Shown here: positions 3,228 through 30,952 of the stretch, piece by piece
Layout: each line of letters begins with the position of its first letter
How positions within the stretch are numbered: the first letter of the stretch is position 1
Source of the DNA: Candidatus Kuenenia stuttgartensis
Lineage (GTDB): Bacteria; Planctomycetota; Brocadiia; Brocadiales; Brocadiaceae
DNA length: 32,000 nt
NCBI RefSeq assembly: GCF_900232105.1
Contig: NZ_LT934425.1
Span: forward strand, 3,690,001-3,722,000
Direction: 5' to 3'
Notes under the pieces: generated by a model
What the model was told of the DNA's origin: nothing
Database searches by the model: none
The model's input: only the letters and a program-made list of their open reading frames with translations
Program-made: the position numbers and the translations under genes

Positions 3228-3267
3228 CTAATGACTAACTTCATAATAATTTTGCGAATAACGGGAA

Positions 3268-4308
3268 TTGATAATTATGCCAGACCTTAGAAAAGACCCT
3301 GTATCCGGTCGTTGGGTTATTATTGCGACGGAACGGGCTATGCGGCCTAACGATTTTAAGATAGAACCGCATGCCCCATTAAGTGCAGATGTGTTTTGTC
3401 CGTTTTGTGAAGGCAATGAAGACAAGACTCCTCCTGAAATTATGGCATATAGGGAAAAAGGCAGCTATGCAAATAAAAAAGGGTGGAGGGTGAGGGTTGT
3501 GCCGAATAAATTCCCGGCATTAAAAATTGAGGGGGGATTGAACAAACAAGGTGTGGGAATATACGATACCATGAGTGGCGTAGGCGCTCACGAAGTGATT
3601 ATTGAAAGTCCCTTGCACATTACATCATTAACGGAAATGTCTATCTGGCAGGTGGAAGAAATATTGTGGACGTACAGGGACAGGATGATTGATTTAAAAA
3701 AGGACAAACGTTTCATTTACGGATTGTTGTTTAAAAATGTGGGAAGAGCCGCAGGCGCCTCTCTGGAGCACTCGCATTCCCAGTTAATTGTCACTCCGAT
3801 TGTGCCTATTACGGTTATCCATGAAATGGAAGGATCGGAGGTATTCTACAAATACAGGGGACGTTGTTTATTTTGTGATATGGTCAGACAGGAATTAGCA
3901 ACAGACGCCAGAATTGTAATGGAAGGAAAAAATTTTATAGCCTTTACGCCTTATGCCTCCCGTTTCCCCTTTGAGATTTGGATTTTGTCAAAAACGCATG
4001 CGTCTCATTTTGAAAACATACAAAAACTTGAGGTTGAGGAATTAGCAAAGATATTACAGAAAACAATATTAAAGCTGGAGGCATGTTTAACATATCCTCC
4101 TTATAATTATATTATTCACACAACGCCTTTTACCTATGGAGAAATAGAATACTATCACTGGCATATAGAGATTATTCCACGCCTGACAAACATCGCCGGA
4201 TTTGAGTGGGGCAGTGGTTTTTATATTAATACGGTTACGCCTGAGACTGCCGCTGAATTTCTCAGGAATGCTAACATCCAAAACAACAATGAGGATATGA
4301 AATTGTGA
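3268..4308 (+). CDS. galT: galactose-1-phosphate uridylyltransferase-family (HIT superfamily) nucleotidyltransferase
   Basis: It carries the zinc motif CPFCEGNE and the active-site motif HSHSQ (HxHxQ), and the overall length fits the GalT family. The track start at 3268 is TTG; the ATG at 3277 (MPDLRKDP...) is an alternative start. The stop overlaps the glgA start (GTGA). Confidence 0.85.
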
Positions 4309-5768
4309 ATGTAGTATATTTATCATCTGAGGTCCTTCCCTTTGCAAAATCAGGAGGGCTGGCTGATATCTCGAGTGTAATACCAAAGAATTTAAATAAA
4401 TTGGGCATCAACGTTATTGTAATAATGCCATTTTATAATATGGTGAAAGAATGTAATTGCACTATAGATAAGACAGATATCACCTTTACGGTAAACATCG
4501 GAGACGATGCAAAAACCTGCTGTGTATATAAAAGTTGTCTGCCCGGCACAGATATTCCGATATATTTTTTACACAACGAACACTATTTCGGGAGAAATGG
4601 CCTGTATAACTATCCTGGTACCATGCGCAATTATGAAGATAATTGCGAACGTTTTATCTTCTTTGCCCGAAGCGCCCTGGAATTAATGCTGCGTTTAAAA
4701 CCTTGTCCGGATATTATCCATTGCAACGATTGGCAGACCGGGCTTATTCCTGTTTATTTAAAGACGATATACGGGAATAACGAATGTTTTAAAAAGACAC
4801 GGACGATAATGACCATTCACAACCTTGCGTTTCAGGGATTATTTCCGGCTGATTGTATGAAATATACGGGGTTAGACTGGGGTCTTTTTCACCCGGCTTA
4901 TTTAGAGTTCTATGGAATGATAAATTTTCTCAAAGCAGGCATTATCTTTAGTGATAGTATTACCACCGTAAGCGAGACATATGCAGAGGAGATACAGACG
5001 CAGGAATTTGGAGAACGTCTGGATGGTGTATTGAGAACGAGGTCAAAGGATATCTATGGCATTCTTAATGGAATAGATTATTCATTATGGAATCCTGAAA
5101 GTGATGCGCTTATAGCGGCTAATTATTCGTACAAAGATCTTTCAGGCAAGCATGTCTGTAAAAAGGCCCTGCAAAGAAAGCTGGGACTGCCGGAAAAGGC
5201 TGTTCCCATAATTGCAATGATTACACGCCTGACGGATCAAAAGGGTCTGGATTTAGTAATGAATATTTTTAATAAATTGCTTAGATTGGATATACAATTC
5301 GTTTTATTAGGTTCCGGAGAATCTGTCTATCAGGATTTTTTTAAACAGTACGCTAAAATTGTCCCTGCAAAGGTTTCAGCAAATATCTCGTTTAATGAGC
5401 CACTGGCGCATGAAATTGAAGCCGGGGCAGATATTTTTTTAATGCCGTCGCGCTATGAACCGTGCGGGTTAAATCAATTATATAGCATAAAATATGGAAC
5501 GGTACCGATTGTAAGACATACCGGAGGTCTTGCGGACACGATTTTTGACGTTCGTCACGAAAAAGTTTATAAAGAAAAAGCAAACGGGTTTTCATTTAAA
5601 GAATATAATGCAGATTTATTGTATGCAACAATTATACGGGCGCTTGATTTCTATAAAAATCGTTCAGAGTGGACGAAACTTATGAGAAACGGAATGAAAC
5701 AGAACTGGCTATGGGAGGAAAGTGCGCGAAAGTATATCTCTCTTTATGAAAAAATTTTGAGAAATTAA
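4305..5768 (+). CDS. glgA: glycogen synthase (ADP-glucose type, GT5)
   Basis: 487 aa with the N-terminal [16 protein letters not shown] (KxGGL) motif and the C-terminal [32 protein letters not shown] block typical of GlgA. It uses a GTG start that overlaps the upstream stop by 4 nt. Confidence 0.93.
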
Positions 5769-5853
5769 TCTTATTTCCCCTGTAATTGCTATTTTGCCGG
5801 GCGGGATGAGAAAATGCAATTTCCCTGTTAAGTATACTTAGCAGTACTAACTT

Positions 5854-6016
5854 AACGTTTAGGAATTGCAATATTTATTTTTATTTAAGCAATGAACAAA
5901 CCCACCCCTAACCCCTTCCAACAGGGAACTTGTCAAATTCCCCTCTCGGGAGGGGATTGAGGGGTGGGTAAAAAATGAACGCCGTTGGGTTTTGTCTTTT
6001 GGAAACCCAACTTAAC
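5854..6016. repeat. composite intergenic repeat, copy 1 (GC-rich nested palindromes), flanked by 8-bp direct repeats AACTTAAC
   Basis: 5887-6016 matches 27745-27872 over about 130 bp at roughly 85% identity by eye, in the same orientation. 5854-5876 (aacgtttaggaattgcaatattt) matches 27584-27607. It contains the palindrome acccacccct..aggggattgaggggtgggt and the hairpin gttgggttt/aaacccaac. AACTTAAC occurs at 5849-5856 and 6009-6016. Confidence 0.8.
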
Positions 6017-6035
6017 TTAACCTTTGGCCAGATAA

Positions 6036-7745
6036 ATGTTGCCGGATACTATAAAATTAAAACTGGAAGATATTATAAATAATATTTCAGATTCGGGAGT
6101 TGCCGGATTGGCATTGCTTGATCACGATCTTAATGTTGCATGGGCGAACCGCTCACTTTCTTCTATTTTAAAATTGAATTATGATCCGGTTGGAAAATCA
6201 TGCCGTGAGATATTTGACTGTGAATGCAAAGATAAGAATAATTGCACAATACTCAAGGCTCTTTCCAGCGGCAGAAAACAGTACAGCGAGGTTCAGTTAA
6301 GCGCTGATAAAGATACAAGAAAATACCTGCAAAATGTATCGGTACCAATTAAAGATGAAAAGGGAAGCATAACACATTTATTAAAAATTACTACTGATAT
6401 TACGTTAAAAGAAGAGAAGATTCATCAATATGATTTATTGAGAAAATTAGCTGAATTAATGCAGGGAACGCTTCAAATTGACCGGCTTCTTCATTTGATT
6501 CTGACGTGTGTGACGGCGGGAACTGCGCTGGGGTTTAACCGTGCAAGGCTTTTTGTTGTGGACCATGACCGCAACATTGTTTTCGGCAAGATGGCGGTAG
6601 GTCCGTCAGATGTTGCCGAAGCGAATAAGATATGGAATGAAATAGCACATAAATACAAAATGCTGGAGGATTTAATAAAGGCGTCGGAAGATAATTATCA
6701 ATATGATTCCCCCTTGCACATGATTACCCGGCTGATGGCATATTCGCTGGATGACGAAAATGAGGTTATTGTTTCATGCATCAGAAAAAAGAAGGTTATC
6801 GTGGAAAAAAATGCATTTAACAATCCCAATATCAACAAGAATTTTGTAAATATGATTGGTTCAAACGAATTTGTCTGTGTTCCTTTGATTGTAAGAGATA
6901 AAGCGATTGGGGCTATTTGCGCAGATAATATATACAGCAAAAAACCAATAACAGATGAAATGGTAATGCTTTTATCCACATTTGCGAATCATGCAGCGCT
7001 GGCGATTGAAAACGCGGATGCGTACAAGAAATTAGAGAAAAAAATTATTCAACTGAAAGACGCACAGGAACGGCTGGTACGTTCTGAAAAGCTTGCGGTT
7101 ATCGGTAACATGGCGGGTTATATTGCCCATGAAATACGAAATCCTCTGGTGACTATCGGAGGATTTGCCAGATCAATAGCCCGGGAAACAGCGGATAATA
7201 AAACAATAAAGAATAGCGCAGAAATTATTATTGATGAGGTAAGCAGGTTAGAAAAAATTCTTGCAGTCGTAATGGATTTTAGCAAAGTCGCTAAACCTGC
7301 TAAGGTGAAAACGCAGGTAAATGAAATAGTTGACAATACAATATCACTCATGGAATCATATTTTAAAAATATCGGCATAGATGTAGTAAAAAAATACGAA
7401 TCAATGATACCGGATATTGTGGTTGATCAGGACCAGATACGGCAGGTATTTTTAAATATCTTTAAAAATGCCGCTGAATCGATGCAAAATGGAGGAAAAC
7501 TGATTGTCGGAACAACGAAAGAGGATGAATATGTGAGAATAGATATTACTGATACAGGAGTGGGTATGGACGCGGACACTATAGAAAATATTTTTACTCC
7601 ATTTTATACTAAAAAAAGGGAAGGGACCGGTATTGGTTTGGCGGTATCGCAGAAAATTGTAGATGATCATGAAGGCTTTATAAAAGTAAAAAGCGAATTA
7701 AATCAAGGCGCTACATTTTCCATTTTTCTGCCGCTAAAGAAATAA
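6036..7745 (+). CDS. sensor histidine kinase (PAS - GAF - HisKA - HATPase_c), cytoplasmic
   Basis: 569 aa with the H-box YIAHEIRNPL, N/G boxes (NIFKNAAES, DTGVGM, GTGIGL), a GAF-like centre and an N-terminal PAS-like region containing the Cys cluster CREIFDCECKDKNNC. No obvious transmembrane segment. Confidence 0.9.
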   Translation: MLPDTIKLKLEDIINNISDSGVAGLALLDHDLNVAWANRSLSSILKLNYDPVGKSCREIFDCECKDKNNCTILKALSSGRKQYSEVQLSADKDTRKYLQNVSVPIKDEKGSITHLLKITTDITLKEEKIHQYDLLRKLAELMQGTLQIDRLLHLILTCVTAGTALGFNRARLFVVDHDRNIVFGKMAVGPSDVAEANKIWNEIAHKYKMLEDLIKASEDNYQYDSPLHMITRLMAYSLDDENEVIVSCIRKKKVIVEKNAFNNPNINKNFVNMIGSNEFVCVPLIVRDKAIGAICADNIYSKKPITDEMVMLLSTFANHAALAIENADAYKKLEKKIIQLKDAQERLVRSEKLAVIGNMAGYIAHEIRNPLVTIGGFARSIARETADNKTIKNSAEIIIDEVSRLEKILAVVMDFSKVAKPAKVKTQVNEIVDNTISLMESYFKNIGIDVVKKYESMIPDIVVDQDQIRQVFLNIFKNAAESMQNGGKLIVGTTKEDEYVRIDITDTGVGMDADTIENIFTPFYTKKREGTGIGLAVSQKIVDDHEGFIKVKSELNQGATFSIFLPLKK

Positions 7746-7768
7746 TTATATATTGAAGGGAGTTTAAA

Positions 7769-8152
7769 ATGGATACTATATTATTGGTAGAAGATGATAA
7801 AAATCAGATTTTGTTATATGAACAGGAACTAGCAATAGAAGGTTATAAAGTTGTTACGGCTACAAATGGGATAGAGGCTATTGAGAACGCGCGGCATTTT
7901 AAACCGGACTTAGTGGTAATGGACATAAATATGCCCATGATGGACGGCATTGAGTCTATGTGCAGGATTTTGAGTGAACATAAAAACATTCCTATAATCA
8001 TTAATACGGCGTATAGCAACTATCAGAACAATTTCATGTCATGGTCGGCTGATGCATACATTGTTAAATCATCTGATCTAAAAGAATTAAAAGACAAGAT
8101 TAAAGAATTGCTTAATAAAAGGAAGAAAAACGACAATGATAAAACCGTTTGA
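7769..8152 (+). CDS. single-domain response regulator (CheY-like receiver)
   Basis: 127 aa: ILLVEDD...DLVVMDINMPMMDGIE...K, a receiver fold with no output domain. The SD GAAGGGAG lies 8 nt upstream. The 3' end overlaps the glgC start by 17 nt. Confidence 0.9.
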   Translation: MDTILLVEDDKNQILLYEQELAIEGYKVVTATNGIEAIENARHFKPDLVVMDINMPMMDGIESMCRILSEHKNIPIIINTAYSNYQNNFMSWSADAYIVKSSDLKELKDKIKELLNKRKKNDNDKTV

Positions 8153-9368
8153 TCATACATTGTATAGAAAAGTCCTTGTAATGCTGCTTGCAGGGGGCAA
8201 AGGGGAAAGGTTGTATCCGTTGACAAGAGACAGGGCAAAGCCCGCAGTCCCTTTCGGCGGGATTTACCGCATTATAGATTTCACCTTAAGTAATTGCATT
8301 AATTCAGGATTAAGAAAAATATGCGTTTTAACACAGTATAAGTCTTATTCATTAGACAGGCATTTACGGGTAGGTTGGAATATTTTCAATACCGAGCTGG
8401 ATGAATTTATTGAAAATATCCCTCCTCAAAAGAGAACCAACGAAATGTGGTATCTGGGAACTGCCGATGCGGTATATCAGAATATATATGTTCTGGAAAG
8501 TGAACGCCCTGAGATGGTATTGGTTTTAGCAGGCGATCATATATACAAAATGGACTATGCTGAACTGATAAATTACCATATCACAAATGAAGCGGATCTG
8601 ACGGTTCCCTGTATTGAGGTGCCGTTGGAAGATGCTACTCGGTTTGGCGTAGTAGCCATAGATAATGATTCCCGTATCATTGATTTTGATGAAAAACCTT
8701 CGAATCCCAAACCACTTCCCACAAATCAAAATGTCGCCCTTGTTTCCATGGGCATATATTTGTTCAATACCGAGGTGCTTGTAAGGCGCATAATAGAGAA
8801 TGCAAAAAATGACACTAACAGAGATTTTGGGAAAAATATTATTCCAACTATGATTCAAAAAGACCGGGTGCTTTCATTTGTTTTTAATGGCAATGAGCAT
8901 AACACGTCTAACTATTGGAGAGATATTGGCACTTTAGATGCATATTGGGAGGCGAATATTGATCTGGTTAAAAAAAACCCCGACTTTGATCTTTTTGATA
9001 ATAGGTGGCCTATCCGAACATATAATAAGCAATATCCTCCCGCAAAATATATATTCGAAAATGAGAAAAACGGAATGATAAAAGATGCATTGATATCAAA
9101 TGGATGCCTGATCAATGACGCCAGCATCGTGAAATCCATTATATCTCCCTGCGTTACAATCGGAGCTCAATCATCAGTGATAGGTTCCATTATAATGGAA
9201 GGTGTAAGAATCGGGGAAAACGTTAAGATTAAAAATGCAATCATTGATAAACATGTAACAATACCGGATGGGATGAAAATGGGATATGATTTGCAGGATG
9301 ATGGAAAACAATTTACGGTAACCGAAAAAGGCATCGTTGTTGCGCACAAGGAAATGCATCTGATATGA
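8136..9368 (+). CDS. glgC: glucose-1-phosphate adenylyltransferase (ADP-glucose pyrophosphorylase)
   Basis: 410 aa with LAGGKGERLYPLTRDRAKPAVPFGGIYRIIDFTLSNCINSG, which is the canonical GlgC N-terminus, plus C-terminal left-handed beta-helix repeats. Confidence 0.93.
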   Translation: MIKPFDHTLYRKVLVMLLAGGKGERLYPLTRDRAKPAVPFGGIYRIIDFTLSNCINSGLRKICVLTQYKSYSLDRHLRVGWNIFNTELDEFIENIPPQKRTNEMWYLGTADAVYQNIYVLESERPEMVLVLAGDHIYKMDYAELINYHITNEADLTVPCIEVPLEDATRFGVVAIDNDSRIIDFDEKPSNPKPLPTNQNVALVSMGIYLFNTEVLVRRIIENAKNDTNRDFGKNIIPTMIQKDRVLSFVFNGNEHNTSNYWRDIGTLDAYWEANIDLVKKNPDFDLFDNRWPIRTYNKQYPPAKYIFENEKNGMIKDALISNGCLINDASIVKSIISPCVTIGAQSSVIGSIIMEGVRIGENVKIKNAIIDKHVTIPDGMKMGYDLQDDGKQFTVTEKGIVVAHKEMHLI

Positions 9369-19458: not shown

Positions 19459-21341
19459 TGTTACTCTTTGTAACGGATGTTCACCCCTGCCAAAACGCAT
19501 AAGTGCTTAATACATAGTTTGTTAAGGCTGTATTTTTAATAAATATGTAGTCACTAATATATTGTTATTATACGACAATATACTTGACGGATAATGGTTG
19601 TTATCTGTACAATGGTGGACATGCATATTGTAGAGAACAAGTCAAAATCCGGTAAAAAAATCTATCGATCTACCCTTCTGCGGGAATCGTACCGTGAGGA
19701 TGGGAAGGTCAAGAAACGCACCATTGCGAATCTGTCGAATTGCACTCCCCTGGAGATTGAAGCGATAAGACTTGCACTCGCACATAAAGACGATCTCTGT
19801 GCATTGGGCGCATTGTCAGAATCGGTGAAACTCCATGAGGGTTTGTCTATGGGAGCAGCGTGGAGCGTGTACCAAGTGGCAAAGGAATTAGGGATAGAAG
19901 AGGCATTGGGAAAGGACTTTGAAGGAAAGCTGGCGCTTTGGCAAGTAATGGCAAGGGTAATAGGCCAGGGGTCAAGACTGTCTGCAGTAAGGCTGGCGCA
20001 GATACATGCTGCGGGTGACGTCCTGGATATGAAGCGTGGGTTTGACGAGAACAATCTGTACGATAATTTGTCATGGTTGTCAGAGAATCAGGCAAAGATA
20101 GAGCGAAAGCTGTTTGAGTTAAGACGAGGAGGCAATAAGCCGAAGTTGTTTTTGTATGACGTGACGAGCAGTTATTTAGAGGGGAAGTCGAATCATTTTG
20201 GTGAGTACGGGTATAATCGTGACGGCAAAAAGAGGAAAAAACAGATAGTGATCGGTATGCTTTGTGATGAATCCGGGGAGCCGGTATCAACAGAAGTATT
20301 TAGGGGCAACACCCAGGATCCGAAGACCTTTGAATCTCAGGTAAAGAAGGTATTAGAGCGGTTTGGATGCAAAGATGTAACGATTGTAGGAGATCGTGGG
20401 ATGATCAAGACGGTGCAAATCGAAAGTTTACCGGAAGGGTTTCATTACATAACGGCGATAACTAAGCCGCAGATAGAGTCGTTGATAAATAAAGGGATAC
20501 TGCAATTAGGATTGTTCGAAGAAAAGCTCTGCGAGATAAAGGATGATGAGGTTAGATATATTCTGAGGCGCAATCCGGTAAGGGCGGAAGAGATGTCAAA
20601 GACCCGTGTATCAAAATTACAGAGTATAGAGAAATACATCGTGAAGAAGAACAGTTATCTGAAGGAACATCCTAAGTCGTCAGTATCGAAGGCACTGGAA
20701 ACAACAAGGGAAAGGCTAACGAGATTGAAACTTGATGGGTGGGTGCAGATAAAAGAAGAGGATAGGACGCTAAAGATAGAGAGAGATGAGGAAGCATTAA
20801 AGGAGGCATCATACCTTGATGGTTGTTACGCAATCAAGACTGATCTTGAGGAGAACGAGGCGGATACCAATCTGGTACATGAACGATACAAGGATTTAAC
20901 GGAAGTGGAGAAGGCGTTTCGGGACTGTAAGACGGTGAATTTGGAGGTTCGTCCGGTGTATGTAAGAAAGGAGGATAGTACACGGGGACATGTGTTTGTG
21001 GTAATGCTTGCGTACATGATAATTCGAAGGCTGCGCAGAGCGTGGAAGAATTTTGACTTGACGGTAGAGGAAGGTCTCGCACAATTGACGACCATTTGTT
21101 CGATGGAAGTAACAATCAAAGGCCAAAAAGCTAGTTGCCAGAAGATCCCGCGTCCGCGGCAACAATCACATGAATTATTAGAGGCATTACAGATAAAGTT
21201 GCCAGAAGTATTGCCAAGCCGGAACATACGGGTAGTCACTAGAAAAAAGCTTGCTGTTCGGCGTAAAAGTCAATAAATATAAGGCTTTTACGGCACTTTT
21301 GTTTTTTGACTTGGGGTGAACATCCGTTGTAAGTAATAACA
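19459..21341 (+). mobile_element. IS1634-family (IS4-related) insertion sequence, about 1.88 kb, apparently intact
   Basis: A single 560-aa DDE transposase ORF is bounded by imperfect terminal inverted repeats: gttactctttgtaacggatgttcacccc (19460-19487) versus the reverse complement of 21313-21340, gttattacttacaacggatgttcacccc. That is 23/28 identical, including a perfect 16-bp inner run. No target-site duplication is recognisable, so the ends are uncertain to a few nt. Confidence 0.85.
19594..21276 (+). CDS. IS1634-family DDE transposase
   Basis: The N-terminus VENKSKSGKKIYRSTLLRESYREDGKVKKRTIANLS is typical of the family. Catalytic blocks are present: LFLYDVTSSYLEG, IVGDRGMI and YKDLTEVEKAFRDCK (the Y..R...E......K-like region). 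Alternative ATG starts lie at 19612 and 19621. Confidence 0.9.
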   Translation: MVVICTMVDMHIVENKSKSGKKIYRSTLLRESYREDGKVKKRTIANLSNCTPLEIEAIRLALAHKDDLCALGALSESVKLHEGLSMGAAWSVYQVAKELGIEEALGKDFEGKLALWQVMARVIGQGSRLSAVRLAQIHAAGDVLDMKRGFDENNLYDNLSWLSENQAKIERKLFELRRGGNKPKLFLYDVTSSYLEGKSNHFGEYGYNRDGKKRKKQIVIGMLCDESGEPVSTEVFRGNTQDPKTFESQVKKVLERFGCKDVTIVGDRGMIKTVQIESLPEGFHYITAITKPQIESLINKGILQLGLFEEKLCEIKDDEVRYILRRNPVRAEEMSKTRVSKLQSIEKYIVKKNSYLKEHPKSSVSKALETTRERLTRLKLDGWVQIKEEDRTLKIERDEEALKEASYLDGCYAIKTDLEENEADTNLVHERYKDLTEVEKAFRDCKTVNLEVRPVYVRKEDSTRGHVFVVMLAYMIIRRLRRAWKNFDLTVEEGLAQLTTICSMEVTIKGQKASCQKIPRPRQQSHELLEALQIKLPEVLPSRNIRVVTRKKLAVRRKSQ

Positions 21342-21345
21342 AACA

Positions 21346-22320
21346 ATGACTTCCATTGAATCAGGCATTAAGGCCTCTGTGCTTGGTATAATTATTAATA
21401 CAGCGCTGGCAATAATTAAAATCATTACCGGCATCATCGGGCATTCGTATGCATTAATTGCAGACGGCATTGAATCCACTACGGATGTCATCAGTTCTGT
21501 TATCGTATGGAGCGGCCTGAGAATAGCATCAGAACCTCCGGATGAAAAACACCCTTACGGGCATGGAAAGGCAGACTCTATTGCAGGACTGTTTGTTTCC
21601 ATGTTATTATTTGGGGCAGCCTTGTTTATTGCAGTTCATAGTATTAAAGATATTCTGGTTCCCCATAAAACACCTGAATGGTTTACGCTTATCGTATTAG
21701 TGTTTGTCATTGTAACAAAAGAAATACTCTTTCGGTTTGTTATTTCCATCGGAGATTCAATAGACAGTACCGCATTGCAAGGTGACGCATGGCATCATCG
21801 GGCTGACGCACTTACTTCAGCCGCGGCATTAATTGGTATTTCAATTGCTCTTATAGGCGGCAAAGGCTATGAAAGCGCAGACAGTTGGGCGGCTTTATTT
21901 GCATGTGTGATTATAACTTTTAACGGTATGAAACTTTTCAGGACAGCGCTCAATGAGGTAATGGATGCCTCAGCTCCGCAAACAATAAAAGATGAAACCA
22001 TTAGAATGGCAAAACAGGTAGAGGGTGTTTTATCGATCGGGAAATGCAGGATTAGAAAAAGCGGAATTACGCTGCTGGTAGATATTCATGTGCAGGTTGA
22101 AGGTGAGATGAGTGTAATGGAAAGCCATGCGATTGCACACCTGGTAAAAGACGAGCTGATTAATAAAAATGTAAATATCCGCGATGTGGTAGTGCATATA
22201 GAACCGTACCATTCTGATAAAATAAATGTAAAAGAATACAATGGACTTTCATTTTTTTCATATGTAAGCTCAATTTGGTTTTTATTACTTTTATTTGACA
22301 AAAAGGAGAATACCATATGA
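21346..22320 (+). CDS. cation diffusion facilitator (CDF) family divalent-metal transporter
   Basis: 324 aa with six transmembrane segments. The TM2 block is SYALIADGIESTTD and the TM5 block is WHHRADALTS (the metal-site H/D pairs of CDFs). A C-terminal cytoplasmic domain follows, then an extra hydrophobic tail. There is an in-frame TAA at 21337-21339, and the IS end lies 4-5 nt upstream of the ATG. Confidence 0.9.
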   Translation: MTSIESGIKASVLGIIINTALAIIKIITGIIGHSYALIADGIESTTDVISSVIVWSGLRIASEPPDEKHPYGHGKADSIAGLFVSMLLFGAALFIAVHSIKDILVPHKTPEWFTLIVLVFVIVTKEILFRFVISIGDSIDSTALQGDAWHHRADALTSAAALIGISIALIGGKGYESADSWAALFACVIITFNGMKLFRTALNEVMDASAPQTIKDETIRMAKQVEGVLSIGKCRIRKSGITLLVDIHVQVEGEMSVMESHAIAHLVKDELINKNVNIRDVVVHIEPYHSDKINVKEYNGLSFFSYVSSIWFLLLLFDKKENTI

Positions 22321-22386: not shown

Positions 22387-23478
22387 ATGGTTATGGGTAT
22401 TTTAAATACATTTAAAAAAGTATATGCAGTGACGGGTTTTTTTGCCTTGTTAGCAGTATTTTCTCTATCGCAGGTGGGGTCCTCTGCTTTTGCCGCGTGT
22501 GCAAAAGTAGATGATTGCTTTTCGTGTCATACCACACAAGAATTAAATGCAGTCCATAAAAATACTCCATACCAGGGACAAAGCTGTATTGTGTGTCACA
22601 AAGCTTTTGCTGCAGATGATACATGCTCAGACGCAAAAGATGGTAGATTCGCAAAAATTTCATCTGAAATAAACATCAACAAAGAAGATTGGAACAAAAT
22701 TCAACGTGCAGTCCATGAGACAACAGAAAAGCATCTTGTAGGGAGAAAATTCTTAAACATTTACGGACCACTTGGAACAGGCGCCCAGAGTGTGCCACTT
22801 GATACGTATGGCCTGCCATCATGGGCAAGCATTGATATGCTGGGCGAGGGCAATGAGGCGATACATCCCCTTAAGAGGGAAATTGCTCAAATATACCTTA
22901 TTTACAAAGACTTTTGGCTTTTCCGGAGAGATATTGAGTTCAGCAAAAAGTGTGAGACGCCCATTGATATAAGTGCTGCAATAGGAGCTGCGGTGTCTGT
23001 TTCCAGGAAAGAGGACGACATGGTTTTTAACGGTTTGTCTGAGATGGGCATTCCGGGGCTTTTGACTGCAAGCGGCAGGAATATAATGAAACTCAGTGAT
23101 TGGTCAGTTATTGGAAACGGCTTTCAGGATGTTGTATTGGCAGTAGAGAAACTGACAAGCAGGGGTTTTAATGGCCCGTTTGCTTTGGTAGTGAGTCCAA
23201 AGTTGTATGCATATCTCCACAGGGTTTATGAGCGTACAGGACAATTAGAGATACAGGGGGTAAAAGAGTTGGTAAACGGGGGTGTTTATCAGAGCTACGT
23301 TTTTAATAAAGATGTGGCGCTCGTAATTGCAACGGGCAGTCTGAATATGGACCTTGCCGTAGGGAGCAATTATAAAGTAGAGTACTGGGGCCCTCAGGAT
23401 CTGAACCACCGGTTCAGGGTTGTGGGGAGTTCTGTGCTCAGGATTAAATGTCCGCAGGCAATTTGTACATTGGAGTAG
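22387..23478 (+). CDS. family-1 encapsulin shell protein with N-terminal Sec signal peptide and dihaem cytochrome c domain
   Basis: 363 aa. Residues 1-37 are signal-peptide-like (...SQVGSSAFA|A). Residues 38-90 carry two CxxCH motifs (CFSCH, CIVCH). Residues about 95-363 match the encapsulin/Linocin-M18 pattern along their full length (EDWNKIQRAVHETTEKHLVGRKFLNIYGPLG..., ...FNGPFALVVSPKLYAYLHRV..., ...YKVEYWGPQD...FRVVGSSVLRIK). The SD GGGAGGG (22380-22386) favours the second ATG at 22393. Confidence 0.9.
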   Translation: MVMGILNTFKKVYAVTGFFALLAVFSLSQVGSSAFAACAKVDDCFSCHTTQELNAVHKNTPYQGQSCIVCHKAFAADDTCSDAKDGRFAKISSEININKEDWNKIQRAVHETTEKHLVGRKFLNIYGPLGTGAQSVPLDTYGLPSWASIDMLGEGNEAIHPLKREIAQIYLIYKDFWLFRRDIEFSKKCETPIDISAAIGAAVSVSRKEDDMVFNGLSEMGIPGLLTASGRNIMKLSDWSVIGNGFQDVVLAVEKLTSRGFNGPFALVVSPKLYAYLHRVYERTGQLEIQGVKELVNGGVYQSYVFNKDVALVIATGSLNMDLAVGSNYKVEYWGPQDLNHRFRVVGSSVLRIKCPQAICTLE

Positions 23479-23481
23479 GTT

Positions 23482-26040
23482 ATGCTTAACAAATCAGCGG
23501 CTTTAGTGCCTGTGGTGCTGGCTTTCCTTTTCCTTTTTCTGTGTTTTCAATGTTTATACGCTGACATCCGCTGTCTTACCGGTAAGGATGGTGCTGTGCA
23601 TTTGGAGATGGAGGCCAAACCCTTAACAATAGAGCCAAGGCCCGGCGTGTTCTTTGATGCCTGGGGGTATTGCCTGAAAGGTGACGTACCCACCGTACCC
23701 GGCCCTGTCATAAAGGTAAGGGAAGGAACTAAGGTTAAGATTCTCTTCAGGAATAAACTGACAGTTCCTGCCTCTATCCACCCTCACGGAGTTAAATATA
23801 CCACCGCCAATGTCGGCGTTAATATTGCCGGGAATCCAGCAAGTATTGTAGCGCCTGGGGATTCAAGGATTTTTGAGTGGGATACTGCCGGCACGCCAGG
23901 CACGTGGTTTTACCACTCCTACGTATTTGAGAGAGGCGGCGAAGAGGGATTATCCAGAGGATTATGGGGAGCGCTTATTGTGGAACCGGTTGGCGGTGAT
24001 CCAAATCCTCCGGATAAAGAGTTTGTGGTATTTATGCATGCATTTAATGTAAACGGACAGGAATACTATGCCTTTAACAATAAATCAGGCGATATTGAGC
24101 TTATGAGGGGAGACAGTTCCGCATTTCCAGGAGAAACATGGAAGGCAAAAATGGGGGACAAGGTAAGGTTTCATCTCATAAATATTACGGAGGAAGCACA
24201 CACTTTTCATACCCACGGGCATCGCTGGCTGGATAAATCTTGTGATAAGCTTATTGATACTATCGGGTTGAATCCATTTGACTCTTATGTCCTGGATTTC
24301 GTTGCCGGTGAAGGTGTGGGGAAGGGTAACTGGGCTTTTCACTGCCAGTCACAGGAACATATGATGAACGGCATGTTCGGTATTTTTATGGTTGAGGAAG
24401 GGAAAAGGGTCAATGCTGTGATTGCATCGTGCGATGAAGGTAGGAAAACACTCAGTGCGCCTGGCCAGGATAGACAGCCTCCAACGCTTGAGGGTTTTTC
24501 AGGTGCTTACATGTATCCGGAAATTACAGAGAAAAACATGTATGAATCATTTGCAGGCTTAGAAAAGGGTGACGGCATTTGGGGTGATTATTATAGCCCT
24601 ATTCCGCTTTATACCTATTTTAATCCTTCACGGCATTATGTTCCTCCGGAAAGCGACGCTTATACAAATCTACTGGTGAAATACAGGCCGGATCAGTGCG
24701 TAGAATGCCATGAGGAAACAACACCTGGTATTGTTGCCGAATGGAAAATGTCCAACCATGCAAATCCAAAGAAAAACCCGCATGTATCCGCTGAGACGCA
24801 GGAGATAGAGGCATTAATCGGGAAAGAGCTGAACAACTGGCGGCCTGGCACAAAGGACGGTGTGTATTGTTCTTACTGCCATGGTTCCGATCATGAAAAA
24901 CTCTTTATGCCCACAGTTGACAATTCATGCGGAGCCTGTCATCCAAAACAAGCAGCGGAATTTATAAAAGGGAGAGATCATGGAAGGCCAAACCACCCTC
25001 AAAGCTGGGAAGGGAATGTATCTACTCCATGGTATGCTGAATACTATCGGCGAGGCGAGGGATATTCTATGGTGGGGTGCGATCAATGCCACCAAAACAT
25101 GTCTTCATGTGATGATTGCCATTCACGCCACCGTTTTTCCGCGGCTGAAGCCCGAAGGCCCGAAGCATGTTCAATTTGTCATATGGGACCTGACCACCCC
25201 GATTGGGAGAGTTATTCACGTTCCAAATGGGGGGTAATTTATGAGACTACAAAAGAGCGGTGGAATTGGGACAAAAACCTTGCGGAGGTTATTCCCGGGG
25301 AAGATTATCTGGCGCCGACTTGTCAATATTGTCATATGTACGTTGGAAATAATAAATGGGAAATGAATGTGGAAACAAAGGGTATATGGCGCATGGGAGT
25401 CATTCCCCCAAAGGAAGTGGAATTTAAATCAGGACTAAAAGACTTCCCCTATGGAATAAAAATACCGCCCATGGATAAAAAACTTGAAATCTATTCTGCT
25501 GAAAGCCAGGAAAAACGCCGCAAATGGGTGGAGCTTTGTTCAAAATGCCATAGCAGCCGCTTTGCCGGCATGTGGCTTGATTCGTTAGACCAATATATGT
25601 TTGAATCATGGCGGCGGATAGACGAAGCGCAGCTTATTATAGAAAAACTTTTTAGTGAGAATGCAATTGAACCTCCTCCGGAGAAAAGGCCTCCCTTTCC
25701 CCTCAGTGATTTGATTATTAAGGTGCTTGGCGCTGAAAAACTGGGGGCTGAAATGTACAGGCTATTTAAACAAACCAACGGGCATTTACCGGTGATAGGC
25801 CCCATTCTTGGCGCTTATTCTATTTTTACCCAAAATGAAGGGAATCCTGGCGGCATAGAAAGGGAATATGCGGAGATGTGGTTCTGGAGCCATTTGCAAG
25901 GTTATAAAGGCGCTGCTCACGCCCAGCCGGATATAAGCTGGTGGTGGGGTACTGCTCAGGGAGTCGGGAATCTGACTCGTATACGGGATGAGGCTGAAAA
26001 ATTAAGACGTTTAAAATCCGGTAGCAGTTCAGGCTTTTGA
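23482..26040 (+). CDS. fusion protein: NirK/multicopper-oxidase-like two-cupredoxin domain plus octahaem hydroxylamine-oxidoreductase (HAO)-like domain; presumptive encapsulin cargo
   Basis: 852 aa, starting 3 nt after the shell gene's stop, with SD GGAG at 23471-23474 inside that gene. Signal peptide: MLNKSAALVPVVLAFLFLFLCFQCLYA. Copper motifs: IHPHG, WFYHSY, HTFHTHGH and HCQSQEHMMNGM. Eight CxxCH motifs lie between nt 24697 and 25551 (CVECH, CSYCH, CGACH, CDQCH, CDDCH, CSICH, CQYCH, CSKCH). The protein ends ...EKLRRLKSGSSSGF. Confidence 0.9.
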   Translation: MLNKSAALVPVVLAFLFLFLCFQCLYADIRCLTGKDGAVHLEMEAKPLTIEPRPGVFFDAWGYCLKGDVPTVPGPVIKVREGTKVKILFRNKLTVPASIHPHGVKYTTANVGVNIAGNPASIVAPGDSRIFEWDTAGTPGTWFYHSYVFERGGEEGLSRGLWGALIVEPVGGDPNPPDKEFVVFMHAFNVNGQEYYAFNNKSGDIELMRGDSSAFPGETWKAKMGDKVRFHLINITEEAHTFHTHGHRWLDKSCDKLIDTIGLNPFDSYVLDFVAGEGVGKGNWAFHCQSQEHMMNGMFGIFMVEEGKRVNAVIASCDEGRKTLSAPGQDRQPPTLEGFSGAYMYPEITEKNMYESFAGLEKGDGIWGDYYSPIPLYTYFNPSRHYVPPESDAYTNLLVKYRPDQCVECHEETTPGIVAEWKMSNHANPKKNPHVSAETQEIEALIGKELNNWRPGTKDGVYCSYCHGSDHEKLFMPTVDNSCGACHPKQAAEFIKGRDHGRPNHPQSWEGNVSTPWYAEYYRRGEGYSMVGCDQCHQNMSSCDDCHSRHRFSAAEARRPEACSICHMGPDHPDWESYSRSKWGVIYETTKERWNWDKNLAEVIPGEDYLAPTCQYCHMYVGNNKWEMNVETKGIWRMGVIPPKEVEFKSGLKDFPYGIKIPPMDKKLEIYSAESQEKRRKWVELCSKCHSSRFAGMWLDSLDQYMFESWRRIDEAQLIIEKLFSENAIEPPPEKRPPFPLSDLIIKVLGAEKLGAEMYRLFKQTNGHLPVIGPILGAYSIFTQNEGNPGGIEREYAEMWFWSHLQGYKGAAHAQPDISWWWGTAQGVGNLTRIRDEAEKLRRLKSGSSSGF

Positions 26041-26085: not shown

Positions 26086-27192
26086 ATGAGCGTGTTAAGA
26101 GTGTTGAACCGTCGTTACAAAAATCGATATTTTCAGATGAATAATTGTGTGAATTACAAAAAAGAGATAGTTAAAAATAGCATAAAATGGCTCTTCCCCA
26201 TAGCATTGCCGTTTGTTATTTATTGGGTTTTATTTTCGAAAATGAGGCCGGAAGATTTTCTCGTTACGATAAAAAATGCGTCTGTTCTCTGGTTAGCATT
26301 AGGGTTTATTGCCTATAGCGCAAACCAGGCATTTCGCACATTACGTTTTCAATGCCTTATCCACACAAAAAAGACATTGAGAAAACAATTGTTCCGGGTG
26401 CAGTCATTATACATTTTTTATAACTACTTGCTGCCTTTTAGGACCGGAGAGGCTACGTATATATATCTTGCGCGAAAGCATTTGAACATTCCTGTGGCGA
26501 ACGGTATCTCTTCCCTTGTGGTTGCAAGGATGTTTGATTACTCACTTCTTATTGTATGTTGCGGGATAATAGCATTATGTATGAAATTGCGCATGACACC
26601 CTGGATAAGCATGCTAATGAAAGGCGGGGCAGTATTGTTTTTTGCGATTACCGCATTGTTTATTTTGTGCATGTTAAGGAAGAATACCTATGTGGTATGG
26701 ATAGGGGAAAAAAGTAATTTTTTCGCTTTGTGGCAGGAAAATAAATTAATCCAAAAATTTTCAGGAGAGTTTCAGAAAATTGTACAGAGCTTCAGGGAAA
26801 TCAGTAATATCAGGACAGGCCTTCAAACCGTTTTTTATACACTATGTACCTGGTTGTGCATATTCCTGGCTTTTTATATGATTACCAGGGGATTAGGGTA
26901 TTCTGTAAGCTTTTTGCAGATGACAGCCGTATCGGTTATCGCCGTAATGTCAAGGGCGTTTCAGGGGGTCGCGGATTTTGGTTCACACGAGATGGGATGG
27001 TTCGGAGGACTGGTGCTTATCGGGTTTTCAGGGAAAGACGCCAGTATCGTATCTTTTTCATCACACATAATTATACTGTGTTATATGCTGGTTGTTACCA
27101 TTTATTCAAAAATTACTTTGAGAAAATACGATGCTATCGCAGCGGCGCCATGTATTTTGAAAGAAAGATATGGAAGGAGCGTCGGAGAATAA
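26086..27192 (+). CDS. UPF0104 / lysylphosphatidylglycerol-synthase-TM-region (flippase-like) family integral membrane protein
   Basis: 368 aa with about 8 transmembrane segments. It contains the family block AFRTLRFQCLI...NYLLPFRTGEATYIYLARKH. The start is uncertain (ATG 26086 or ATG 26137). It lies 45 nt downstream of the fusion gene. Confidence 0.75.
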   Translation: MSVLRVLNRRYKNRYFQMNNCVNYKKEIVKNSIKWLFPIALPFVIYWVLFSKMRPEDFLVTIKNASVLWLALGFIAYSANQAFRTLRFQCLIHTKKTLRKQLFRVQSLYIFYNYLLPFRTGEATYIYLARKHLNIPVANGISSLVVARMFDYSLLIVCCGIIALCMKLRMTPWISMLMKGGAVLFFAITALFILCMLRKNTYVVWIGEKSNFFALWQENKLIQKFSGEFQKIVQSFREISNIRTGLQTVFYTLCTWLCIFLAFYMITRGLGYSVSFLQMTAVSVIAVMSRAFQGVADFGSHEMGWFGGLVLIGFSGKDASIVSFSSHIIILCYMLVVTIYSKITLRKYDAIAAAPCILKERYGRSVGE

Positions 27193-27242: not shown

Positions 27243-27266
27243 ATAACAATATTTGGAGGATTGAAA

Positions 27267-27584
27267 ATGTCTGTATTGATAGTGGGCGGCGATCATCTGG
27301 GGAGTATTCCAAAGGAGCTTGATAAAATAGGGGTGAATGATATAAAACATCTGGCTGGGAGAAGCAATCAAAAGATGCGAAACAGCATTCCTGAGTCAAT
27401 GGATTTTATTATTGTATTGTGTGATTACGTGAACCATAACCTTTCACACAAAATTAAAGAGTATGCAAGTTTGAAGGAAATACCTGTTGTTTATGCAAAA
27501 AGATCATGGTCGTCCATTTATCAAAAGATAAAGGATAACCAGTGTCAGCTTAAAAAGAAGGGGTTGCTGTTCCCACTTAATTAA
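27267..27584 (+). CDS. DUF2325 domain-containing protein
   Basis: MSVLIVGGDHLGSIPKELDKIGV.DIKHLAGR...MDFIIVLCDYVNH matches my recollection of the DUF2325 family. The ATG at 27267 lies 7 nt after GGAGG; the track start at TTG 27261 is less likely. Confidence 0.8.
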   Translation: MSVLIVGGDHLGSIPKELDKIGVNDIKHLAGRSNQKMRNSIPESMDFIIVLCDYVNHNLSHKIKEYASLKEIPVVYAKRSWSSIYQKIKDNQCQLKKKGLLFPLN

Positions 27585-28660: not shown

Positions 28661-30952
28661 ATGAAATATAATACTACTCTAAAGATAACCATTGTGTTTT
28701 TCATTGTATCTGTTTTTCTTTGCAAGGGCGCCTTTGCCGGTGTTTCATATACGTTGAGCAGAAATGCGGACTTTTCTACGGATGACAGGGCTTTTCTCGC
28801 CACGGATACCCTCTTTGTGAAGATATCACAAAATAAGTATGACTATCATGACGTTACAAAATCTGTTTTTACTTTAAAAGAAAAGGGTAAAAACTCAAAA
28901 AATGAATTTGAATTAACCTGGAATACGGCTCAAAGCGCGTTCACAGGTTCAGTTTCGTTCGGTGATTATGAGGTTGGCAAAAAAATAACAATCAAGATAC
29001 TACTGGAATGGAAAGATTATAAAATCAGAAAAAAAGCGCGTCTTGTGGTAGGTACGTATGAAACGTGGGAGATTGCCGGAACCGTTTATGATAAATATTC
29101 AGGTAATATAAAAGATGCCCGGGTAAGGATACAGGGGATGGCGGATATTAATAAAAATGATGAGAGCTATTATCCGGAAGATGAAGCACACTATGTGCTC
29201 TCTGACGAAGACGGAAGTTTTTTAATTACATACGAGGGCATTTCCGGACAGGAAGTCATAGTTGCCGCAGGCAAAGAAGGATTTAAAAATGCGGGTAAAG
29301 AAATAATTTTGGGGGAGGATGATTTTGCAGAGATTGCCCTTTCAACGTTTCCGGAGAAAGACCATTCTGATTATGAATACCGGACGAGTAAAAATTGTAA
29401 AAAGTGTCACAGTAATATTTATAATGAATGGAATGACAGCGAGATGGCAGCCTCGGCGATGAATCCGATAAATCAACTGAACTTTCTTTTATATACCGCA
29501 TGGTACGTGACGGGTGACCGCTCAAATTTTGAAGATGATTCAATCTTTAACGATCCGAATCCTGAATTTGTAGGCGATAAGGGGAAAATATTTGAAGACG
29601 ACACCGGCAGATATAAGATTCTCGGAGACGCGGGGAATCTTCACGATTGCGCTGATTGTCATTCTCCTTCGTTTGCATCCGGTTTACAGGGCGACGGTAA
29701 GACACCAAAATGGGATATGAGGGCAGGTGTTTTGACTGATGTTGATAATTTATCTTCAATAGACAAACAGGGTGTTCATTGTGATTTTTGTCATAAGATT
29801 CAAAATGTGCATGATGGGGAAGAGTATTGGACGGAACCAGGCGTGAATTATAAAGTTGACCTTTTACGTCCCGATCCTTCCCTGGAATCCTCAAAAGAGG
29901 GGAAGGTGATGTTTGGGCCTTTTGACGATGTTACATATAAAAGTATGCAGGCATCGTACGTTCCTCTGTTTAAAAAGAGTGAAATATGCACCTCCTGCCA
30001 TCAGGATGCACGGAAATTATATTTACAACCGGTAGACGAAAATGATCAACCTACGGGCGAAGAAACCATTGAGAGAATATTATGGAGTGAAGATACATAT
30101 CGCGAATGGAGATTTAGCGGTTATAGCGGATTGGAAGAAGATTATCCGGTAAACAATTATGCAGGGCGGGCGCTGCAGTGTCAGGATTGCCATATGAAAG
30201 ACCCACCCCCTGACCCCGCAACGGGCAAATCTATTGCAAATTATAAAGAGGTCACAGATTCATTTTATATGTTGTCCGAAGACAAAAAGCAGTCGGGGAC
30301 CAGCCGCGACCCCAGAACCATATATCCTCACCATTTTGAAGGAACCAATCAAAACCTTCCGGTTGGCGAAAAGAAACGATATCTTGATTGGGCGGTGGAT
30401 CTTTCAGTTTCGAATGCCAGTGTCACTGATGGTATTGTCAGTTTTGATGTGGATGTGAAAAATTCACATACGGGTCATGCTTACCCATCCGGTGTTACGC
30501 AACGAAATGTCGTTTTATATGTGGAAGTAACGCAAACAGGAAATTCTCTTAGTCAAACCAATGATCAAGTCGTTGATACCCCGGGAGGAAATTTCCCGAA
30601 TGGCTATTATAATGGTGAAGGAGACTATGCAGGGAAGTCGGGCAAAATATTCATAAAACATAACAGGATGCTTGAAGATAACAAGGATCTGGATCCTTTT
30701 TTCAATGATATATTGTATGCCTTTGCCGTTGAGGAATTGTACGATACGCGCATCAAGGCGAATGAGACAGACACCACACACTATGAGTTCCAAACACTGG
30801 ACAACAGCACAATAACCATCACTGCAAGGCTTATTTACCGCTTTTATCCGAAAGGAACGCTTGAATTTGCGGCGCAAAACGGATATGTGATTTCTTCCCT
30901 GGAGGAAAATGATTATGAATCGCATAAAGTGGAAATAACCGTAGAGCCGTAA
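28661..30952 (+). CDS. secreted pentahaem cytochrome c with CarboxypepD_reg-like Ig domain
   Basis: 763 aa starting 2 nt after the HD-GYP stop. Signal peptide: ...VSVFLCKGAFA|G. Five CxxCH motifs: CKKCH, CADCH, CDFCH, CTSCH and CQDCH. The first is in the c554-like context CKKCHSNIYNEW. An Ig-like domain is present at WEIAGTVYDKYSGNIKDARVRIQG...DGSFLI. Confidence 0.88.
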   Translation: MKYNTTLKITIVFFIVSVFLCKGAFAGVSYTLSRNADFSTDDRAFLATDTLFVKISQNKYDYHDVTKSVFTLKEKGKNSKNEFELTWNTAQSAFTGSVSFGDYEVGKKITIKILLEWKDYKIRKKARLVVGTYETWEIAGTVYDKYSGNIKDARVRIQGMADINKNDESYYPEDEAHYVLSDEDGSFLITYEGISGQEVIVAAGKEGFKNAGKEIILGEDDFAEIALSTFPEKDHSDYEYRTSKNCKKCHSNIYNEWNDSEMAASAMNPINQLNFLLYTAWYVTGDRSNFEDDSIFNDPNPEFVGDKGKIFEDDTGRYKILGDAGNLHDCADCHSPSFASGLQGDGKTPKWDMRAGVLTDVDNLSSIDKQGVHCDFCHKIQNVHDGEEYWTEPGVNYKVDLLRPDPSLESSKEGKVMFGPFDDVTYKSMQASYVPLFKKSEICTSCHQDARKLYLQPVDENDQPTGEETIERILWSEDTYREWRFSGYSGLEEDYPVNNYAGRALQCQDCHMKDPPPDPATGKSIANYKEVTDSFYMLSEDKKQSGTSRDPRTIYPHHFEGTNQNLPVGEKKRYLDWAVDLSVSNASVTDGIVSFDVDVKNSHTGHAYPSGVTQRNVVLYVEVTQTGNSLSQTNDQVVDTPGGNFPNGYYNGEGDYAGKSGKIFIKHNRMLEDNKDLDPFFNDILYAFAVEELYDTRIKANETDTTHYEFQTLDNSTITITARLIYRFYPKGTLEFAAQNGYVISSLEENDYESHKVEITVEP

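Follow-up and report, generated by a model that had tools for sequence, protein, structure and literature searches.

What is the function of a protein in which a multicopper oxidase (MCO) domain is joined to an octahaem hydroxylamine oxidoreductase (HAO) domain and whose gene adjoins that of an encapsulin shell? We addressed this question for the fusion gene kuste2479 in a 32,000-nucleotide stretch of the Candidatus (Ca.) Kuenenia stuttgartiensis genome (contig NZ_LT934425.1, positions 3,690,001 to 3,722,000 of the forward strand; hereafter the window, in whose coordinates all nucleotide positions are given). An initial annotation, made from the DNA letters, had proposed that the copper domain reduces nitrite to NO or oxidises another one-electron substrate and is wired directly to the octahaem centre. 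Our analysis points to a different answer, which we consider probable: the product is a secreted encapsulin cargo that combines a small-laccase domain, whose trinuclear copper cluster is degenerate, with a reductive HAO domain. The observation itself is already described in the literature, as the fusion, the ligand substitutions, and a tryptophan at the haem cross-link position are all published. Our additions are modest: a mapping of the copper sites onto NirK, the assignment of one lost ligand to each type-3 copper, and lineage-specific ligand erosion with faster evolution of the copper domain.

Judged by its sequence, the open reading frame is kuste2479, the known NIR-HAO (or MHAO) cargo candidate of the cytochrome-fused encapsulin. 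We make this identification because the signal peptides of both this gene and the encapsulin gene next to it match the published ones, because Kuenenia accessions contain the exact protein, and because the encapsulin gene directly adjoins it. The exact-sequence look-up (more than 100 contigs) returned QII12968.1, a Ca. Kuenenia stuttgartiensis entry named 'putative copper oxidase and hydroxylamine oxidoreductase (Fusion protein)'; the N-terminus matches CAJ73224.1, and the published length of kuste2479 is likewise 852 residues (PMC4913261). The protein is presumably secreted into the anammoxosome. Its Pfam matches are Cu-oxidase_3 (6e-19), Cu-oxidase_2 (6e-15), and Multi-haem_cyto (PF13447, 4e-49), and its PDB matches are 6H5L (2.6e-163) and two-domain laccases (~1e-32). 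The gene is laid out as follows:

23482..26040, + strand: MCO-HAO ('NIR-HAO', MHAO) fusion gene kuste2479, 852 residues in the open reading frame list; it starts 3 nt past the stop codon of the encapsulin gene (cEnc)
23482..23562, + strand: signal peptide, residues 1-27 (MLNKSAALVPVVLAFLFLFLCFQCLYA), the same as in the Methods of Giessen & Silver
23599..24036, + strand: MCO cupredoxin domain 1, with motifs L1 (H100, H102) and L2 (H145, Y147); placed by Pfam Cu-oxidase_3 (residues 72-169), AlphaFold2, and Foldseek
24037..24411, + strand: MCO cupredoxin domain 2, with motifs L3 and L4; placed by Pfam Cu-oxidase_2 (residues 217-307) and the ligand columns
24412..24534, + strand: inter-domain linker, residues 311-351, between the Pfam and PDB matches of the two domains; its start, which is the end of the AlphaFold2 model, is modelled with low confidence
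24535..26016, + strand: HAO-type octahaem domain, residues 352-845, placed by matches to 6H5L and N. europaea HAO

To which family does the copper domain belong? Sequence and modelled structure assign it to the type-B two-domain MCOs (the small-laccase family) and not to NirK, because its PDB matches, a structural search, a profile comparison with NirK-like proteins, and a NirK equivalog score below the cut-off agree on this class. The closest solved relatives by sequence are the two-domain laccases 8aip, 3tas, and 3cg8 (PDB phmmer), and the top 50 Foldseek matches of an AlphaFold2 monomer model (residues 28-321, pLDDT 85) are all two-domain small laccases, with TM scores of 0.71-0.78. With the NCBIfam NirK equivalog TIGR02376, the score is 60 bits, far short of the cut-off of 296. 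Like the small laccases SLAC (3CG8), Ssl1 (4M3H), and that of S. griseoflavus (5LHL), to which it is ~30% identical with TM scores of 0.72-0.78, kuste2479 has two cupredoxin domains, with the type-1 ligands in the C-terminal one, and a matching motif order and spacing. Unlike them, it has six rather than eight cluster histidines, an anammox-specific insertion, a fused octahaem domain, and a strictly anaerobic host. The insertion, as seen against actinobacterial small laccases, covers roughly residues 190-215 (about nt 24050-24125; FNVNGQEYYAFNNKSGDIELMRGDSSAFPG), part of it at pLDDT ~50 in the AlphaFold2 model.

The four classic MCO motifs, two of them degenerate, had been listed in the initial annotation, and a motif script confirmed them where they had been placed. 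An alignment with orthologues and with SLAC then located the two substituted residues:

nt 23779, + strand: HPHG (L1), residue 100
23905-23922, + strand: WFYHSY (L2), residue 142
23920..23922, + strand: Tyr147, at the site of the second HxH histidine of L2; its SLAC counterpart, His158, binds a type-3 copper
24199-24222, + strand: HTFHTHGH (L3), residue 240
24340-24375, + strand: HCQSQEHMMNGM (L4, HCQSQEH), residue 287
24346..24348, + strand: Gln289, where a His would follow the type-1 Cys; its SLAC counterpart, His289, binds the other type-3 copper

All type-1 ligands (H240, C288, H293, and M298) are kept and lie in the C-terminal cupredoxin domain, and the type-2 histidines H100 and H243 are kept as well. 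Within L3, H240 is a type-1, H243 a type-2, and H245 a type-3 ligand, while H287 of L4 is a type-3 ligand. Six of the eight trinuclear-cluster histidines are present, with Y147 and Q289 in the places of the lost two. Thus, the earlier claims that the type-1 site is retained and that two cluster histidines are missing both stand, and the substituted residues do sit at ligand positions, since their columns map to the ligands H145 and H287 of the Brocadia pituitae orthologue. The orthologue alignment comprised 19 anammox loci from a scan of genome contigs, which was used because a word-index homologue search with the MCO domain recovered the anammox family only as fragments; part of the sequences come from metagenome-assembled genomes (MAGs). 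Residue 147 is His in 17 of the 19 orthologues, as is residue 289. The patterns WFYH[ST]Y and HCQSQ[EA]H are kept by every member of the 90% identity cluster that covers the motifs (together more than 100 contigs), so that Y147 and Q289 are not sequencing errors. Across the alignment, the copper ligands are as follows:

Brocadia and all orthologues not listed below (15 loci): 12/12 copper ligands canonical
K. stuttgartiensis (window): Y147, Q289
K. hertensis (L015): L147, Y287, Q289
Ca. Loosdrechtia (L018): N289 and type-1 H293R
Brocadiaceae MAG SRP093185 (L016): type-1 C288S

Biochemical data on this family come from a July 2026 preprint on the B. pituitae orthologue BpMHAO (BBO17176; bioRxiv 10.64898/2026.07.28.741245). 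BpMHAO and kuste2479 belong to the same family and the same kind of operon, with identities of 70% (MCO domain) and 76% (HAO domain), an encapsulin gene 5' of the fusion gene, and Trp at the cross-link site in both; BpMHAO, however, keeps 8/8 cluster histidines, where kuste2479 has Tyr147 and Gln289. In the preprint, the copper domain is placed among the type-B two-domain small laccases, and the replacement of His145 and His287 (Brocadia numbering) by Tyr and Gln in Kuenenia is already noted. By its measurements, each protein binds about 2.9 Cu, with signals of types 1, 2, and 3, and the copper domain has weak laccase activity and O2-dependent ferroxidase activity; although fully liganded, this domain had no nitrite reductase activity with methyl viologen. 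The haem domain in cell extracts reduced hydroxylamine but neither reduced nitrite nor oxidised hydroxylamine, and its cross-link position is occupied by Trp. In an AlphaFold 3 trimer model, the nearest copper-haem gap is about 33 Å (10.64898/2026.07.28.741245).

Could the two substitutions instead have turned the laccase site into something closer to NirK? This was the proposal of the initial annotation, which saw a site intermediate between the two; in its full form, type-1 copper and a reduced interfacial copper site would reduce nitrite to NO and feed the octahaem domain directly. The gene is widely annotated 'NIR', the main nitrite reductase of Kuenenia is still debated, and NirK is a distant homologue, likewise trimeric, with two cupredoxin domains per subunit, a type-1 copper, and an interfacial copper site. 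To compare the sites residue by residue, we aligned NirK-like proteins from a homologue search (which carry the motifs HSIDFH, HCGTPPxxMHIxQGM, FHxVG, and THAF) with the anammox profile, domain by domain, using hhalign. They are detectable relatives (1e-9 to 1e-6) and can be placed in two ways, collinearly (probabilities 98.9 and 92) or swapped, with type-1 domain on type-1 domain (97 and 48):

NirK His100: H102 in the collinear mapping, H245 in the swapped mapping
NirK His135: H145 collinear, H287 swapped
NirK His306 (third type-2 ligand): Q289 collinear, Y147 swapped
NirK Asp98 (catalytic): H100 collinear, H243 swapped

In both mappings, the residue equivalent to the third type-2 ligand is the substituted one and the catalytic Asp is a His, so the NirK reading is not supported, and by these alignments neither half-site can form a NirK type-2 centre. 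The type-1 copper also lies in the opposite domain, in domain 2 of kuste2479 as against the N-terminal domain of the NirK-like proteins compared, whose type-1 His aligns with A97 and type-1 Cys with S146 (collinear mapping, probability 98.9). What remains NirK-like in L4 is its 'HC-non-His' pattern, HCQ resembling the NirK His-Cys-non-His in the swapped mapping, whereas the defining features of NirK, namely type-1 copper in domain 1, a three-His type-2 site, and Asp98 of the catalytic Asp98-His255 pair, are missing. Nor is there a shared new ligand set in the genus, as K. hertensis has Leu147 and Tyr287. Taken with the equivalog score and Foldseek matches above, the lack of nitrite reduction by the Brocadia MCO domain, and the modelled copper-haem distance, which also leaves the proposed direct wiring unproven, these results make a nitrite-reducing hybrid site most improbable, and reduction of nitrite to NO by this domain is not supported.

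We next consider which metals of the small-laccase cluster lose a ligand. By alignment offsets, Y147 corresponds to SLAC His158 and Q289 to SLAC His289. In a Co-substituted SLAC structure, which gives the pairing indirectly, H104 and H156 are on one metal, and H158 shares the other with H236 and H287 from the neighbouring chain (PMC9629707). The correspondence assigns the loss of one His to each type-3 copper, since the SLAC H158 and H289 counterparts belong to different metals. The ligand sets of ascorbate oxidase agree with the metal pairing in SLAC. The positions of Y147 and Q289 are mates by the pseudo-twofold symmetry of the cluster.

If the cluster has decayed, has selection on the copper domain changed? 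We compared the Kimura distances of each taxon to ten canonical full-length sequences, separately for the MCO and HAO domains. The MCO/HAO distance ratio was 0.64-0.92 in ten canonical lineages (among them JP1 and nzgw511, in which the HAO domain has diverged further than in Kuenenia) and 1.17, 1.33, 1.63, and 1.37 in the four eroded lineages. Between K. stuttgartiensis and K. hertensis, the MCO distance is 0.395 and the HAO distance 0.250; their copper domains are 69% identical. In our reading, wherever ligands are eroded, constraint on the copper domain has relaxed or shifted. The anammox MCO clade is isolated: in an exhaustive search of representatives, it formed a single representative at 50% identity, with the next match at 2.5e-48, and canonical ligands were usual among the best 150 matches. 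Separately, simple pairwise alignments pointed to a few unrelated small MCO-like proteins with similar losses at these L2 and L4 positions (P0216, 365 residues; P0246, 336 residues; P0156, 354 residues), an example being QY in L2 with HCE in L4.

These data also bear on whether the interfacial cluster has been remodelled rather than lost, with Tyr147 and Gln289 acting as ligands or in the second sphere of a bi- or trinuclear site retuned for NO, hydroxylamine, or Fe(II) in place of O2. The two substitutions are fixed across the K. stuttgartiensis strains sampled and pair symmetrically, with one residue per type-3 copper, both side chains can bind copper (for Gln, stellacyanin is cited in 10.64898/2026.07.28.741245), and the domain remains as similar between the two Kuenenia species as stated above. 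However, K. hertensis has a non-ligating Leu147 and loses His287 too, the MCO domain outpaces the HAO domain in exactly these lineages, and Ssl1 mutants with His99 changed to Tyr, Gln, or Asn are called type-2-copper-depleted in their PDB entry titles. On balance, we regard a remodelled working cluster as unlikely, and we favour a degenerate one.

We turn to the octahaem domain, for which the initial annotation had given eight CxxCH motifs, now supported by the motif script and by Pfam and PDB matches. The relevant features are as follows:

24697-25551, + strand: eight CxxCH motifs, at residues 406, 463, 483, 533, 543, 563, 614, and 686
25192-25197, + strand: distal Asp571-His572 pair (GPDH), after the haem-6 motif, from alignment
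25903..25905, + strand: Tyr808, in LQGYKGAAH (residue 805); not the cross-link residue, from alignment
25939..25947, + strand: Trp820-Trp821-Trp822, at the position of the cross-linking Tyr (N. europaea HAO Tyr467), from alignment

All eight motifs are collinear with those of 6H5L and N. europaea HAO. The domain is 50.5% identical to Kustc0458 (6H5L) over 483 residues (2.6e-163), against 2.5e-51 for N. europaea HAO, and scores 139 bits with the NCBIfam HDH equivalog, for which the cut-off is 900. The GPDH pair (D571, H572), which we take from HAO structures to be catalytic, has as its counterparts GVDH in N. europaea HAO and GPDH in 6H5L. A count of His residues conserved with 6H5L, made to look for distal haem ligands, gave six outside the motifs. 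At the cross-link site, the counterpart of Tyr467 is W822 by HMMER, W821 by a spacing rule (Tyr467 of N. europaea HAO, in GWTYTEG, and the Tyr of 6T5E, in NQTYGNG, both lie eight residues past a conserved Ala-His), and W820 from the structural equivalent in the preprint, Trp782. By any of these, the position is Trp; SWWWG is invariant in every orthologue that reaches the region and is present in 6H5L. Tyr808, which had been put forward as the cross-link candidate, is not that residue, because it aligns with N. europaea HAO His454 and is present, as LQGYKGTAH, in the cross-link-free 6H5L. The C-terminal Phe852, suggested by the 6T5E numbering, was also considered as an equivalent and was rejected, as the 6T5E Tyr, with the chain numbering offset resolved, aligns eight residues past the conserved Ala-His.

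From sequence and by analogy, we conclude that the haem domain is a reductive, Kustc0458-like octahaem HAO that lacks the Tyr-haem cross-link, because a Trp triad stands at the Tyr position and the closest characterised relative has no Tyr cross-link and is a reductase only (Kustc0458, 6H5L; PMC8042395). Most likely, it works as a reductase of hydroxylamine, and possibly of NO or nitrite, and not as an oxidase. The likeness to Kustc0458/Kustc0457 (HAOr) extends from whole-domain identity to the eight CxxCH motifs, GPDH, and SWWWG. HAOr differs in that it is a separate protein with a separate dihaem partner and a cupredoxin gene nearby, is not associated with an encapsulin, and reduces nitrite, which the HAO domain of Brocadia MHAO did not.

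How is the fusion protein connected to the shell? The gene directly upstream encodes it:

22387..23478, + strand: cEnc (kuste2478), dihaem-cytochrome-fused family 1 encapsulin shell gene, from Pfam, NCBIfam, and PDB
22516-22530, + strand: cEnc haem motif CFSCH
22585-22599, + strand: cEnc haem motif CIVCH
22672-23475, + strand: cEnc shell domain, residues 96-363

cEnc matches Pfam Linocin_M18 (2e-59), NCBIfam encap_f1 (237 bits against a cut-off of 100), and, as its best PDB match, M. xanthus EncA (4pt2, 1.5e-70). Its exact sequence is UniRef100_Q1Q6L7, and residues 1-36 are the published K. stuttgartiensis cEnc signal peptide. Compared with Kustc0457 and solved cytochromes, the cEnc dihaem domain gave nothing significant (top match 6lod, E 0.023). 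An encapsulin gene lies directly 5' of the MCO-HAO gene in 19 of 19 anammox loci, with the dihaem fusion confirmed for the encapsulin of the window. Giessen & Silver (bioRxiv 10.1101/085266) described the fusion, noted the absence of the cross-link Tyr and of a targeting peptide, and found that the NIR domain co-purified with the shell in E. coli. Two loci depart from the usual arrangement. The Brocadiaceae MAG SRP093185 has two tandem encapsulin genes (2920-3888 and 4687-5826 of its contig) 5' of its MCO-HAO (C288S) gene. Scalindua rubra (L019) has an encapsulin (1736-2710) followed by a stand-alone MCO of 324 residues with 12/12 ligands and no HAO domain, which suggests that copper domain and shell go together even without the haem domain.

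What, then, might the copper domain do? In the model that we favour, kuste2479 would trimerise through both domains and would associate with the encapsulin interior through its copper domain and the dihaem extensions of the shell, as the co-purification suggests. With the canonical O2-reducing trinuclear cluster probably degenerate or remodelled in the strict anaerobe Kuenenia, the copper domain would most likely survive as a trimeric scaffold and a docking module for the encapsulin, and the type-1 copper of Kuenenia may act as a cupredoxin-like electron-transfer relay, which we think its most likely role. The haem domain would reduce hydroxylamine, most likely, and possibly NO. We propose scaffolding and electron transfer because the NIR domain co-purifies with the shell and because the paralogous kustc0458 cluster has separate genes for a dihaem cytochrome and a type-1 cupredoxin, a parallel arrangement of the same modules.

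A stricter version, in which the copper domain is a structural relic that serves trimerisation and encapsulin docking and none of its coppers has a redox role, accommodates the co-purification of the NIR domain alone in a protein that has no targeting peptide, the raised relative evolutionary rate in the eroded lineages, and the loss of different copper sites in different lineages, including the type-1 changes Cys288Ser and His293Arg. With the type-1 site destroyed in other lineages, the only role common to all may indeed be structural. Yet both Kuenenia species keep, or nearly keep, the four type-1 ligands and six of eight cluster histidines, the orthologues outside the four eroded lineages keep 12/12 ligands, and the Brocadia domain binds ~3 Cu and is redox-active. 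A purely structural domain thus seems to us very unlikely. It is possible that the copper domain oxidises another one-electron substrate, the second activity named in the initial annotation. More specifically, the type-1 copper of Kuenenia could be an anaerobic electron-entry site that oxidises a one-electron donor (e.g., Fe(II) or a small cytochrome), from which electrons would pass through the interfacial site or the shell dihaems to the octahaem centre for reduction of hydroxylamine or NO inside the encapsulin; we give this a rather small chance. With Fe(II) as the donor, the domain would act as a ferroxidase that needs no O2, which could explain the iron-rich ~25 nm particles of the anammoxosome.

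Several points weigh against the secreted cargo with a degenerate small-laccase cluster and a reductive HAO domain that we favour. Tyr and Gln side chains are able to ligate copper, and the cluster might still hold three coppers. The fully liganded Brocadia domain, with its ~3 Cu and weak O2-dependent ferroxidase activity, indicates that copper chemistry is not dead in the family. The enzyme data are from Brocadia, the HAO activities of that orthologue came from crude extracts, and the Kuenenia copper domain is known biochemically by shell co-purification only; this evidence for encapsulation concerns the NIR domain and not the full-length protein. Loss of the type-1 site in Loosdrechtia and SRP093185 argues against type-1 electron transfer as a universal role. 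Finally, our rate comparison uses simple distances and not codon models, and the eroded lineages amount to about two independent clades only.

With no NirK-type site in the copper domain, one candidate for the missing anammox nitrite reductase is removed. The 'NIR' label is still spreading in annotations, and our results shift the focus to the haem domain as a possible site of hydroxylamine or NO reduction. Loss of copper ligands, varied across anammox lineages, suggests a conserved role other than O2 reduction, and perhaps other than any copper catalysis, and its distribution by lineage can guide the choice of an orthologue to study.

The operon is flanked by genes with a narrower distribution, and the remaining features of the window are as follows:

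21346-22320, + strand: cation-diffusion-facilitator efflux transporter, directly 5' of the encapsulin gene
26086-27192, + strand: LPG-synthase-TM-like membrane protein, directly 3' of the fusion gene
27261-27584, + strand: DUF2325 protein, 3' of the operon
19594-21276, + strand: IS1634-family transposase (308 bits with the NCBIfam model, cut-off 100), just 5' of the transporter-encapsulin block
1866-3227, + strand: UshA-like nucleotidase/phosphoesterase domain fused to a cytochrome c554-like C-terminus
28661-30952, + strand: 763-residue multihaem protein
3268-9368, + strand: glycogen/sugar-nucleotide gene set (GalT-like, starch-synthase-like GT5, and glucose-1-phosphate adenylyltransferase-like), interrupted by a PAS-GAF histidine kinase

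The transporter (84% identity) and the LPG-synthase-TM-like neighbour (73%) recur beside the operon in K. hertensis, not in the Brocadia loci, and they therefore lend no family-wide support to an iron link. Two open reading frames of 491 residues, at 10310 and 15992, were considered as relatives of each other and proved unrelated. The DUF2325 family also occurs 3' in L005 and in the Loosdrechtia locus; DUF2325 and a 'c554' protein are each named in the encapsulin literature as possible secondary cargo.

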